UHGV virus genome: UHGV-1419557 | Direction: 5' to 3' (one strand) | Length of the DNA: 22,498 nt | DNA from: a virus | Shown here: one piece after another, positions 17,944 through 22,498 of the stretch | Layout: each line of letters begins with the position of its first letter | Numbering within the stretch: the first letter of the stretch is position 1 | The notes under the pieces: generated by a model | What the model saw: the letters and a program-made list of their open reading frames with translations, nothing else | Told to the model about the DNA's origin: nothing | The model's database searches: none | Translations under genes and position numbers: made by a program

Positions 17944-17972
17944 AGCCACGGATGGCTAATTTTTATTCTTTG
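17944..17972 (+). terminator. Weak intrinsic terminator after gene 16
   Basis: 5-bp stem agcca / tggct with cgga loop, followed by AATTTTTATTCTTT. Confidence 0.3.
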
Positions 17973-18306
17973 ATCTCGTCCACAGGTAAAGAAGAGCAAT
18001 GGCAAGACAGGAAACAGAGAATAGATAACCTACCTCATATGGTGCGCCAAAAAAATTAGCTATTGATACGGGCAAAAAAGCCGAAGCGATCAGAATTGAA
18101 AGGCAAAAAATAAGCCCAGTAACATAGTTTATTAAACTCTTAAATGAGAAACGTTTTGCTTGATTTACGGTCTCAGCGAGTGATCGCTTAACGATGGATA
18201 AAAGCAAATAGATGGCGACAGTAGCTAATGCCCCTTTCCACCAGTCTGGATATAGTTTTGCGACAATCAGCCCAAGGAAAACCATGATGACAGACTGAGC
18301 ATTCAC
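17956..18306 (-). CDS. Small integral membrane protein (about 4 TM helices), function unknown; candidate superinfection-exclusion-type moron
   Basis: 116 aa with four hydrophobic segments. GTG start with SD aaggagg 5 nt upstream. Convergent with gene 16, divergent from the adjacent + strand operon. AT-rich. Confidence 0.6.
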   Translation of the reverse strand: MNAQSVIMVFLGLIVAKLYPDWWKGALATVAIYLLLSIVKRSLAETVNQAKRFSFKSLINYVTGLIFCLSILIASAFLPVSIANFFGAPYEVGYLFSVSCLAIALLYLWTRSKNKN

Positions 18307-18385: not shown

Positions 18386-18414
18386 TTGCATAATGATATC
18401 ACGTGACGTAAACT
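18386..18414 (+). promoter_or_regulatory. Candidate promoter for the two-gene operon, with embedded palindrome TCACGTGA
   Basis: TTGCAT (18386-18391), 17-bp spacer, TAAACT (18409-18414). Perfect 8-bp palindrome TCACGTGA (18399-18406) lies inside the spacer. Confidence 0.3.
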
Positions 18415-18481
18415 TATTGCGCATAGCGTGTATTCAATGGATGCATAGCTATTGATAATCTCCGATAAGAAGGAGGTTTGT

Positions 18482-19048
18482 ATGAGCAATGAGACTAATG
18501 GGATTGATGAAATGTTTAGCTTGAACGCTGCCAAAGCTGGAGTCGCAATAGGTTTGCTATTACAGCAAGCTTCTGCGTTCAGTTGTGAGGTGGTTGTTAC
18601 TGATAACGTTCAGCACGCTTACCATCAATCCTCATTCAGCAGTGAACGGGCTAATGATGAGCTTCATGAGGCGGTGTCTTCGATTAAAGAATTGTCTCGA
18701 ATGCTGAAATACGCTTATCGTGTTCTTGCAAACGCTACCGATGAGAATGTAGACAATGTGTTGTCTATCATTGAACCAGAAAAGTCTCGATTGATAGAGC
18801 ATCAATTGAGAGGACTTGAAGGGGCAATGAAATCGGTATTCAAAGAAGCTTCTGCTGATTTTAAAGAGATCGCAAGAGATATCTATATCGTTGTTGCTGA
18901 TGCCAGATCTGCCGTAACCAACCTGAATAGTCTTATTAAACAACGCTCATGTGTTCCGGTTGTTTTTGATAGTTCCGTAGATATGGCTGGTTTGCGTGCG
19001 CTTGCTGAGCACGGGACTCGTGTGTTTCACTCTGGTAACTTCCACTGA
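18482..19048 (+). CDS. Hypothetical protein (188 aa), first gene of a two-gene operon; candidate partner/antitoxin of the downstream YafO-like protein
   Basis: Strong SD aaggagg 6-7 nt upstream of ATG 18482. Stop is 8 nt before the next start, whose SD lies across this stop. No recognised domain. Confidence 0.65.
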   Translation: MSNETNGIDEMFSLNAAKAGVAIGLLLQQASAFSCEVVVTDNVQHAYHQSSFSSERANDELHEAVSSIKELSRMLKYAYRVLANATDENVDNVLSIIEPEKSRLIEHQLRGLEGAMKSVFKEASADFKEIARDIYIVVADARSAVTNLNSLIKQRSCVPVVFDSSVDMAGLRALAEHGTRVFHSGNFH

Positions 19049-19056
19049 GGTAAAAC

Positions 19057-19506
19057 ATGCAAGTAACCGTGGAATATAATCAGGATAGTTTTGACTATTT
19101 TTTCTCCCCGGTTTTTGTTGAGTTTCCTGATTTAAAACAAACACTTGTAGATGATTTTATCATCTACAAGTCTACGGGAACGTTGCCCAGCTATTTTGGC
19201 AGAGACACCTCTTATCATCGACCTCCTGATATTGAAGATGCAGGCCTTATGCACCTTCATTTAGCAATTGGTGAAAATAAATTTGAGCCAATAAAAAATG
19301 GCACAGATATCAGCACACCGCAAAAGTTGCAGTGGCATAAAACATCCAATACCGCTCTCGTTTATGCACAAAATCTTTTTGATGAGAACAGGTATTCATT
19401 GATTGCTCTTTTTCATCCTGTAGCTCACATGTCTGCTAACAATCATAATAGAATGAGAGTGTTAGCAGGGTATGCGAGAGACTTTAGAAACACTATGTTT
19501 GACTAA
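19057..19506 (+). CDS. YafO-family toxin-like protein (putative ribosome-dependent mRNA interferase domain)
   Basis: 149 aa. DFIIYKSTGTLPSYFGRD ... HLHLAIGEN.F.P ... ALVYAQNLFDEN.YSLIALFHPVAHMSANNHNRM ... FR parallels recalled E. coli YafO (DFISYKRDGVLPDIFGRD ... HIHLANENNPFPP ... HLVYCQGAFDEQAWLLIAILKPEPH ... DNNQM ... FR). Followed by a strong terminator. Confidence 0.6.
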   Translation: MQVTVEYNQDSFDYFFSPVFVEFPDLKQTLVDDFIIYKSTGTLPSYFGRDTSYHRPPDIEDAGLMHLHLAIGENKFEPIKNGTDISTPQKLQWHKTSNTALVYAQNLFDENRYSLIALFHPVAHMSANNHNRMRVLAGYARDFRNTMFD

Positions 19507-19530
19507 ACCCACCGTCAGGTGGGTTTTTTA
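19507..19530 (+). terminator. Intrinsic terminator after the YafO-like operon, possibly partly bidirectional
   Basis: Stem aacccacc / ggtgggtt, loop gtca, then TTTTTT. A-run upstream gives weak reverse-strand potential for the convergent ClpP-like gene. Confidence 0.7.
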
Positions 19531-19554: not shown

Positions 19555-20091
19555 TCAAACAACCCACCAGTTTGCCTGATTGGATGCCAGCCTTGCAGTT
19601 TTTATGGAATTAATTATGCCATGCTCAAGAGCCTTGTTAGCATCCAAAATGGTCGAGTCTGCTATCAGGGATGCCCACCTAATATGGGTTCCGATGTCGA
19701 TATTGAACGTCTCAACGAAGCGATCAAGATCGTTATCGAGGCATTTCCCGTACTCTCTCAATCTGGCATGGTCGGCGGCTGGGGAGGCAAAGCACCATAA
19801 TAGAGGATGTAACAGGAATCTTGATAATGGGTTTGCGAAACGTTCTGAGCCAGCCAGGAAAACGATATTAGCTATGGATTCAACATTGCTTATGTTGTGA
19901 GTTCTAACGGTAACAGGGAGTGACTTAAGAAAGTTATACGCAGTAAAGCCAGCAGCAGTTTCCCCTCCCTGACTTGATATATGGATATTTAATTCAGTTG
20001 CGCCTTGAGATAATGCGGTGAGACAGTGGTTCTGAAGTTGCCCAACAGTGGCAGTGTTAACAGGGCATAAGAAATGAATTGTGTGCAGCAT
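19555..20091 (-). CDS. Compact ClpP-like (peptidase S14 / ClpP-crotonase fold) protein, translationally coupled to mnt
   Basis: 178 aa. IHISSQGGETAAGFTAYNFLKSLPVTVRTHNISNVESIANIVFLAGSERFANPLSRFLLHP aligns by eye with ClpP [63 protein letters not shown], with the catalytic Ser and His positions conserved and a candidate Asp downstream. Start ATG overlaps mnt stop (TAATG on - strand); SD aagga upstream. Confidence 0.65.
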   Translation of the reverse strand: MLHTIHFLCPVNTATVGQLQNHCLTALSQGATELNIHISSQGGETAAGFTAYNFLKSLPVTVRTHNISNVESIANIVFLAGSERFANPLSRFLLHPLLWCFASPAADHARLREYGKCLDNDLDRFVETFNIDIGTHIRWASLIADSTILDANKALEHGIINSIKTARLASNQANWWVV

Positions 20092-20339
20092 TATTTTTCA
20101 TCCTTAGCATACATGGTCTTTAGCGTCTCAAGTAGCGCCTCTTTGAATTTATCAGCTTCTTGCTGAGCAAATGACTCAACTGACTTTGGCGACCTATCTT
20201 CATCAATCGCGGCTTGCAAAATCATGACGATCTCGGAGTTAACAGAGCGACCATTTTTTGATGCTCTGACAGCAAGAGCCTCGCGTAAAGATTCAGGGAT
20301 TCTTACCGTAGTTGGAGAAATTGACACACCCTTTGCCAT
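20091..20339 (-). CDS. mnt: Mnt repressor (ribbon-helix-helix, Arc/MetJ superfamily)
   Basis: 82 aa from ATG 20339 (- strand). NGRSVNSEIVMILQAAI motif and ...ETLKTMYAKDEK C-terminus parallel recalled P22 Mnt. Divergent from arc as in P22 immI. Confidence 0.8.
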   Translation of the reverse strand: MAKGVSISPTTVRIPESLREALAVRASKNGRSVNSEIVMILQAAIDEDRSPKSVESFAQQEADKFKEALLETLKTMYAKDEK

Positions 20340-20453
20340 ATAACACCTTTGGTATTCAATTTGATAGCAAAGTGTATGCAAAAAAATTTTGACTAGATAT
20401 ACTCACTTTGCTATCTTTTGTATTCGAAAAGAGTTGTTTGCGTGGAGGGTAAC
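20340..20453. promoter_or_regulatory. mnt-arc divergent control region (candidate Pant/Pmnt and operators)
   Basis: 12-bp inverted repeat arms GATAGCAAAGTG (20363-20374) and CACTTTGCTATC (20404-20415). Candidate Pant: TTGACT at 20389-20394, TATCTT at 20412-20417. Arc SD ggaggg at 20444-20449. Confidence 0.5.
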
Positions 20454-21841: not shown

Positions 21842-22498
21842 ATGACAGACATTACAGCCAATGTGATTGTATCGATGCCTTCGCAACTCTTCACTATGGC
21901 GCGTTCTTTTAAAGCCGTAGCCAATGGCAAAATTTATATCGGTAAAATTGACACTGACCCGGTAAATCCTGAAAACCGGATTCAGGTTTATGTAGAGAAC
22001 GAAGACGGCTCTCACGTTCCTGTTTCGCAACCAATCATCATTAACGCTGCTGGTTACCCTGTATATAACGGACGGATTGCCAAGTTCGTAACTGTGCAAG
22101 GCCATTCTATGGCTGTGTACGATGCGTATGGCGTACAGCAGTTCTATTTCCAGAATGTGCTGAAGTATGATCCTGATCAACTACGGCAGCAATTAGAAGA
22201 CCCAGATGGAGCGAATAAATACCCAAAACTTCAGATAGCAAGATGGAGAGACAGTTATGATGTAAGAGGTTGGGGGGCTATTGGTGATGGTGTTCATGAT
22301 GATACATCAGCTCTATCAGAATTACTTTCTGTTGCAACAGGTGGTGAAAAGATAGATGGGCGAGGGCTTACTTTTAAAGTATCAACTCTTCCAGATGTCA
22401 GTCGATTTAAAAATGCTCGTTTTTTATTTGAGAGAATACCGGGTGGATTTGCCCCTATATTTCCAGACACCTGTTATCACTTAACCCATTACTGGCTT
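21842..22498 (+). CDS. Tailspike protein, 3-prime partial: P22 gp9-type head-binding domain followed by a different receptor-binding domain
   Basis: SD ggag 8 nt upstream of ATG 21842. First ~115 aa ([59 protein letters not shown]...VLKYDPDQ) match recalled P22 tailspike N-terminus. Downstream [15 protein letters not shown] is a pectate-lyase-superfamily beta-helix entry motif. Open to window end. Confidence 0.9.

Follow-up and report, generated by a model that had tools for sequence, protein, structure and literature searches.

A phage-restricted helical partner of YafO-family toxins in an Escherichia coli P22-like prophage: a candidate toxin–antitoxin or abortive-infection cassette

What does a YafO-type toxin gene do in a P22-like prophage when the gene in front of it does not encode a recognizable antitoxin? 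The question arises from the UHGV virus genome UHGV-1419557, a stretch of 22,498 nucleotides (here the window) that is a P22-like (Lederbergvirus-type) Escherichia coli prophage. Within its immI region lies a cassette of two small co-oriented genes, the second of which had been read from the sequence as a YafO-like toxin gene and the first as coding for an unrecognized partner, together a candidate toxin–antitoxin or abortive-infection module of undescribed architecture (the original prediction). Both open reading frames (ORFs) are real, lie where they were predicted and are tightly coupled. With moderate confidence we interpret the cassette as a type II-like toxin–antitoxin or abortive-infection moron in which the partner represents a new antitoxin family. 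The features that define the cassette are:

18482–19048, plus strand: partner gene, ATG start, 188 amino acids (WP_000064337.1, 'hypothetical protein'; phrog_8416).
18470–18476, plus strand: Shine–Dalgarno sequence of the partner gene, AAGGAGG, 5 nucleotides before the ATG at 18482.
19057–19506, plus strand: YafO-family toxin homologue, 149 amino acids (WP_001198454.1; phrog_1651; RefSeq 'type II toxin-antitoxin system YafO family toxin').
19047–19050, plus strand: Shine–Dalgarno sequence of the toxin gene, GAGG, overlapping the TGA of the partner gene (19046–19048), 6 nucleotides 5′ of the ATG at 19057.

The assignment of the downstream protein is secure at the level of the family. The profile search that had been proposed as a check matches PF13957 (YafO_toxin) with 78.9 bits (E = 3.4e-22; the cut-off, the Pfam gathering threshold, is 25 bits), residues 37–145 of the protein corresponding to positions 3–101 of the 101 in the profile. 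BLASTP against K-12 YafO (sequence from NC_000913) gives 38% identity over 120 residues (E = 7e-20). The NCBIfam model NF007377 scores 79 bits, under its equivalog cut-off of 153; these scores place the window toxin in the YafO family without making it an equivalog of the K-12 protein. In an alignment of 22 phage representatives with K-12 YafO (23 sequences) F34, G48, H66, H68, L101, Y103 and H124 are invariant. H66, H68 and H124 are likely the active-site histidines, and together with Y103 they are the candidate catalytic residues in common with K-12 YafO. A search of the PDB found no YafO relative with a solved structure. The family has been placed among the RelE/ParE (BECR-fold) mRNA-cleaving toxins (PMC11980606).

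The coding region of the toxin also contains the longest perfect hairpin in the window (19143–19171), a 13-bp inverted repeat with a 3-nucleotide loop (ACTTGTAGATGAT TTT ATCATCTACAAGT) that folds with −16.2 kcal/mol as RNA and encodes L-V-D-D-F-I-I-Y-K. It is partly retained in one related prophage (L017), L005 has a different hairpin at this position and several other clades have none; either an mRNA element or a coincidence of codons could account for it.

The two genes are separated by 8 nucleotides. Because the GAGG of the toxin gene overlaps the TGA of the partner gene and lies 6 nucleotides before the toxin ATG, the arrangement suggests that partner and toxin are translationally coupled, as had been proposed. 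This linkage extends far beyond the window. Profile hidden Markov models of both families were run over 90 loci, and 90 YafO-like genes were examined. In each of the 77 phage or prophage cases in which the sequence leaves room for it, a partner-family ORF directly precedes the YafO-like gene (gaps of −10 to +16 nucleotides), so that no toxin gene lacking the partner was seen among them. The remaining genes are 12 at a contig edge and K-12 yafNO, the only locus without a partner-family ORF. The linked pairs amount to 44 distinct pairs in phage and prophage loci, with both genes conserved well beyond chance, and come from Escherichia, Salmonella, Proteus, Klebsiella and Pseudomonas phages. Their settings vary: in HK639 the pair lies between tape-measure and minor-tail genes, and in Proteus and metagenomic prophages beside integrases or tail genes. 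Further carriers include Pseudomonas phages D14L and YMC11/02/R656, Klebsiella and Escherichia phage-plasmids, E. coli lambdoid prophages and the E. coli phages PhiR40_1 and PhiR55_1, whose submitters labelled the pair 'YafM antitoxin' and 'YafO toxin'.

The two proteins of the pair also diverge together. Over 903 comparisons the identities among partners track those among toxins (Pearson r = 0.88), and the partner diverges faster, with a mean identity of 28% versus 50% for the toxin. Antitoxins usually evolve faster than their toxins. A single orphan partner without toxin was found (L093:2501-2914); it is N-terminally shortened and lies in a non-phage neighbourhood. At one locus (L087:1900-2480, compared with L088) a 1-nucleotide deletion, real or a sequencing error, splits the partner gene and leaves the toxin gene intact.

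The partner itself belongs to a rare family. When 1.84 billion representative proteins were searched exhaustively with a profile (E ≤ 1e-3), 24 representatives were retrieved, and word-indexed protein searches gave 6 and 17 relatives; a search of genome contigs with the window partner gave no match. None of the relatives has a Pfam domain or any name beyond 'hypothetical protein', and PHROG 8416, to which the partner belongs, has no assigned function in PHROG. The window partner has no significant family match in Pfam or NCBIfam, no match to PF13274 (the Panacea domain), no similarity to YafN and, in a profile search, no match among PDB sequences. PADLOC-DB v2 returned only a chance-level match to ZorA (E = 0.0039) over a coiled stretch. 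The AlphaFold2 model of the partner (mean predicted local distance difference test score, pLDDT, 70 with 6 sequences and 78 with 14) is all-helical: an N-terminal hydrophobic helix (residues ∼ 16–41) is followed by a disordered linker (37–53), a bundle (54–156, pLDDT ∼ 90), a C-terminal helix (168–184) and a terminal F-H. The statement that the partner shows no recognizable antitoxin fold is thus borne out.

Conservation in the partner family is concentrated in the motifs L-R-G-L-E and V-A-K-A-R-S...L-N and in the last ∼ 30 residues, and members usually end in F/L-H. The C-terminal region is the most conserved stretch; it was modelled with low confidence from 6 sequences and as a moderately confident helix from 14. 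Such a conserved, helical C-terminus resembles the toxin-binding tails of antitoxins, and by this analogy we count it in favour of a toxin–antitoxin relationship.

The position of the cassette in the prophage points in the same direction. It is delimited downstream by:

19505–19529, plus strand: intrinsic terminator, 9-bp stem (19505–19513/19518–19526), loop GTCA and T-run, beginning inside the toxin stop codon and lying between convergent genes.

The strong terminator of the original prediction is real (−14.9 kcal/mol, z = −2.6), but it is not the cassette's own. Phage matches to the window restart exactly at 19505, inside the toxin stop codon. Emek and phiv205-1, both with a different cassette, have the identical sequence, which the annotation of Emek marks as 'terminator', and they also share the ClpP-like gene that follows. 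Because phages without the YafO cassette share it, the terminator is, on this comparison, part of the phage backbone and outside the cassette. In Emek (L091:2125-2998) and phiv205-1 (L090:2132-2998) the same slot is occupied by a gene with a Panacea domain (PF13274) and, after it, an unassigned one of ∼ 160 amino acids, presumably a PanA-type toxin–antitoxin pair with an unclassified toxin. The Panacea gene of phiv205-1 is truncated to 91 amino acids. Judged from these genomes, the slot ahead of the terminator exchanges antitoxin-then-toxin cassettes, of which two kinds are seen, and the proposal of a cassette hotspot holds. The cassette has a GC content of ∼ 40–42%, compared with 46–51% in the structural genes.

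The two kinds of cassette have the same position and orientation in a P22-like backbone, the same order of antitoxin and then toxin and the identical terminator. They differ in that the window partner lacks PF13274 and in that the toxins are unrelated (YafO versus the unassigned 160-amino-acid protein). Panacea antitoxins lack a classical DNA-binding domain, a likeness to the window partner.

The obvious system for comparison is YafN–YafO of K-12 (dinB-yafNOP). The toxins belong to the same PF13957 family, at the identity given above, and share the HxH motif, the equivalent of H124 and the tyrosine; in both systems the gene in the antitoxin position comes first and the genes nearly abut. In contrast, the window partner has 188 residues, is helical and bears no similarity to the 97-residue Phd/YefM-type YafN, the toxin has an N-terminus longer by ∼ 17 residues and an insertion in the middle of the protein, and the pair is phage-borne rather than part of the chromosomal backbone. 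The window cassette also has neither a LexA box nor the SOS operon context, being located in a prophage immI region instead. As read from its sequence, the cassette is not a YafN–YafO system.

These observations lead us to propose the following model. The cassette would be a self-contained two-gene moron of ∼ 1.17 kb between the DNA-ejection genes and mnt/arc/ant. Its layout is that of a type II system: the gene in the antitoxin position comes first, the two genes are small and co-oriented, and the toxin is homologous to a validated toxin. A single transcript with coupled translation would yield partner first and toxin second. The downstream protein would act as an endoribonuclease of the YafO family (RelE/ParE superfamily) and halt translation by cleaving mRNA. 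Its cognate neutralizer would be the partner, from a phage-specific helical family that takes the place of a Phd-type YafN. We infer that the toxin would be kept inactive by direct contact with the most conserved, C-terminal part of the partner (the last ∼ 45 residues, with the helix and the invariant-type F-H) and that it would be freed once the supply of partner fails. The benefit to the prophage may be abortive infection or superinfection defence, in which an incoming phage that shuts down host gene expression would cause toxin release; alternatively, the pair may serve as an addiction module.

Several points weigh against this model. No ribbon-helix-helix, helix-turn-helix, AbrB or Phd domain was found in the partner by Pfam or NCBIfam, and fold comparison gave only generic helical-bundle matches and no specific fold, so that no known antitoxin domain is recognized. 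The toxin matches no defence model of PADLOC-DB v2 and is not a catalogued defence gene. The C-terminal charge of the partner tends to oppose that of the toxin (rho −0.36 to −0.47, values uncorrected for phylogeny), a weak trend that could at best hint at direct contact. The most serious point, however, is the N-terminus of the partner. A crude rule for Sec signal peptides fits 19 of 22 partner-family representatives but only 7–18% of 236 background ORFs; the hallmarks are an n-region with basic residues, an uncharged core of at least 10 hydrophobic residues and small residues at −3/−1. Several of the N-terminal segments end in the manner P...A-x-A, such as MARTKVPFSKVAMLSLALSVSTSCAQLAAA followed by TP (L010), ...SSLQPQAKA followed by AE (L013), ...VLTQPAALA followed by EA (L005) and ...MSGYSEA followed by AS (L071). 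Such a Sec-like N-terminus, for which an antitoxin of the cytoplasm should have no use, suggests export over residence in the cytoplasm, and it is mainly on its account that we give a plain cytoplasmic antitoxin no more than moderate confidence.

The rival explanation that follows from this feature is that the partner is exported by Sec and is periplasmic or membrane-tethered, rather than a resident cytoplasmic antitoxin. We regard this as unlikely overall; it takes two forms. In the first, the partner neutralizes the toxin only as a cytoplasmic precursor, which would tie toxin control to ongoing synthesis and to the status of Sec and the proton-motive force. In the second, the partner works at the envelope, for example to exclude superinfecting phages or to sense the entry of a phage, with the YafO-like RNase forming the other, cytoplasmic arm of one defence. 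Besides the signal-peptide-like N-termini across the family, export is favoured by the AlphaFold2 model, which sets the N-terminal helix before a disordered linker of ∼ 15 residues and a separate bundle, and by the location of the cassette, which adjoins DNA-ejection genes and a gene for a small membrane protein. P22-type phages keep exclusion functions in the region beside the DNA-ejection genes. The membrane-protein gene is:

17956–18306, minus strand: small hydrophobic protein, 109–116 amino acids, several predicted membrane helices, no family match; divergent from the cassette.

Its product is a candidate superinfection-exclusion-type membrane protein, and the gene takes the position of an Sf6 gene-38-like ORF in Emek.

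Against export, the feature is weak in the clade of the window itself. The window partner is borderline: its hydrophobic core has 9 residues (AGVAIGLLL), and the n-region ahead of it is net negative from the start supported by the Shine–Dalgarno sequence (net charge −2 if counted from M1 and +1 if counted from the conserved M11), owing to an acidic extension ahead of M11. In the clade of Klebsiella phage-plasmids (L011, L012) the partner N-terminus is polar and basic, yet the pairing with the toxin persists. The motif G-L-L-x-Q is conserved beyond what is usual for signal peptides, and strict linkage and coupling with a cytoplasmic RNase are hard to account for if the two proteins never meet.

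The window has two in-frame starts for the partner (18482–18514). M1, with the strong Shine–Dalgarno sequence, extends the protein by an acidic decapeptide. Throughout the family M11 is near-invariant, and many members begin there. The two starts raise the possibility of isoforms that differ in N-terminal charge. A lipoprotein, considered on account of a Cys after the hydrophobic segment of the partner, was rejected, as the residues preceding the Cys fit no lipobox in most members.

A bolder variant keeps the partner as an antitoxin but gives it a working Sec signal peptide, so that its lifetime in the cytoplasm would be set by export and not by Lon or Clp proteolysis. An end to partner synthesis would then set the YafO-type RNase free, or a disturbance of Sec or the proton-motive force, for instance by an infecting phage, would alter its control. 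In the window clade, the M1 start (with the acidic extension) and the M11 start might yield retained and exported isoforms. We consider this variant improbable.

A different alternative to the toxin–antitoxin or abortive-infection model is that the genes are a co-inherited moron without such a relationship: the YafO-like protein would be non-toxic or serve, for example, host mRNA turnover in lytic growth, and the function of the partner would be unrelated. The score of the toxin below the NCBIfam equivalog cut-off (79 versus 153), the acidity of the phage-type YafO-like proteins (median pI 6.0) and the location of the HK639 pair among late tail genes would all fit. However, the pair persists down to a partner identity of 15–20%, in unrelated phage backbones and at varied genome positions (immI region, tail-gene clusters and integrase-proximal ends), the putative catalytic histidines are kept, and a cassette with a bona fide antitoxin domain occupies the same slot in Emek and phiv205-1. 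Mere co-inheritance thus seems to us a poor explanation. The last candidate concerns the genes on the far side of the terminator:

19555–20091, minus strand: ClpP-family protein, 178 amino acids (PF00574, E = 2e-11), closest models phage head-maturation proteases; 48 nucleotides past the toxin stop, convergent.
20091–20381, minus strand: Arc-family repressor gene in the Mnt position; overlaps the ClpP-family gene, which is directly downstream.

A three-part system in which the ClpP-like protease degrades the partner and so frees the toxin is suggested by this convergent proximity, but we rejected it as highly implausible: protease and cassette are distributed independently, phiv205-1 having the protease gene without the YafO cassette and HK639 and the Pseudomonas and Klebsiella phages the cassette without the protease, and the protease is encoded on the opposite strand, in the mnt operon. 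The ClpP-like and Mnt-position genes apparently make up a single leftward operon of immI. The presence of a ClpP-like gene at this distance from the head genes is unexpected; phiv205-1 has it too.

How the cassette might be transcribed is suggested by a single upstream element:

18386–18414, plus strand: candidate sigma-70 promoter, read by eye, TTGCAT (18386–18391), 17-nucleotide spacer, TAAACT (18409–18414).

The promoter with a palindromic site that had been noted here fares unevenly. The positions of the hexamers are kept in two related prophages (TTGCAT/TAGAAT in L016, TTGCAG/TAGACT in L017), but a promoter consensus scan called no promoter upstream of the cassette and found sites in numbers no higher than in shuffled sequence. 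The palindrome in the spacer (TCACGTGA, 18399–18406) has 8 bp, which is roughly chance level, and is lost in L017. An operator function of TCACGTGA was rejected on this lack of conservation and on the lack of a detectable DNA-binding domain in the partner. Because the partner has no recognizable domain of this kind, operator autoregulation of the cassette is, from its sequence, not expected. No LexA box of the form CTG-N10-CAG occurs upstream of the cassette, and the stricter form is absent from the whole window.

In hosts, the cassette is uncommon. The region is 100% identical in E. coli ATCC 11775, S88, APEC O1 and others, and at least 80% of a 1.3-kb query was found in 55 of 5,426 complete E. 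coli genomes (∼ 1%), chromosomal every time. In the identical RefSeq stretch, the DNA-ejection proteins are followed by a small minus-strand hypothetical, WP_000064337.1 and WP_001198454.1; beyond the toxin come the convergent ClpP-like and Arc-family (Mnt-position) genes and then Arc, Ant, an IS21-family element and the tailspike. In the identical prophage of ATCC 11775 the IS21-family element ISEc12 (istA/istB) lies between the antirepressor and tailspike genes and corresponds to ∼ 22064–22498 of the window, which ends inside it. Because the element separates these two genes, the prophage may be defective for tail expression. Elsewhere in the window, an intergenic, terminator-like perfect 12-bp inverted repeat with a 6-nucleotide loop, GGCATGAGGTTG CGCTAA CAACCTCATGCC, followed by GTTTTG, occupies 1472–1501.

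To what extent is such a pair new? Surveys have recognized YafO toxins with non-Phd upstream proteins. Leplae 2011 reported YafO toxins whose partner is either Phd or an unnamed protein assigned by 'guilt-by-association' (PMC3141249), and Singh 2023 described 13 clusters of partners for the YafO toxins of E. coli, 8% of them known (PMC10790755). Papers on P. aeruginosa prophages list a YafO toxin as lacking an identified antitoxin (PMC10449497). A homologous pair is entered in GenBank as 'YafM antitoxin / YafO toxin' (record PV340560), and its partner is a member of the window partner family. The two surveys and the record share with the present case the pairing with a non-Phd protein; unlike it, they do not define the partner family, its restriction to phages, the strict linkage or the signal-peptide-like N-terminus, and they contain no experimental data. 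Our literature search found no experimental study of this pair. The description 'previously undescribed' in the original prediction therefore needs qualification: the YafO toxin family and the toxin name given by the Prokaryotic Genome Annotation Pipeline (PGAP) are known, and what is new is an uncharacterized, phage-restricted partner family at which the surveys and the GenBank record had already hinted.

The analysis thus defines a phage-restricted family of YafO partners that is missing from Pfam, NCBIfam and PADLOC. Should the downstream protein prove toxic and the pair neutralizing and protective, a YafO-based module would join the prophage-encoded defences. If the signal-peptide-like N-terminus is functional, it would challenge the view of protein antitoxins as resident cytoplasmic proteins, and if the lifetime of the partner is indeed set by export, this would be a new way to make an antitoxin 'labile' and would give a toxin–antitoxin module wired to the status of the envelope.

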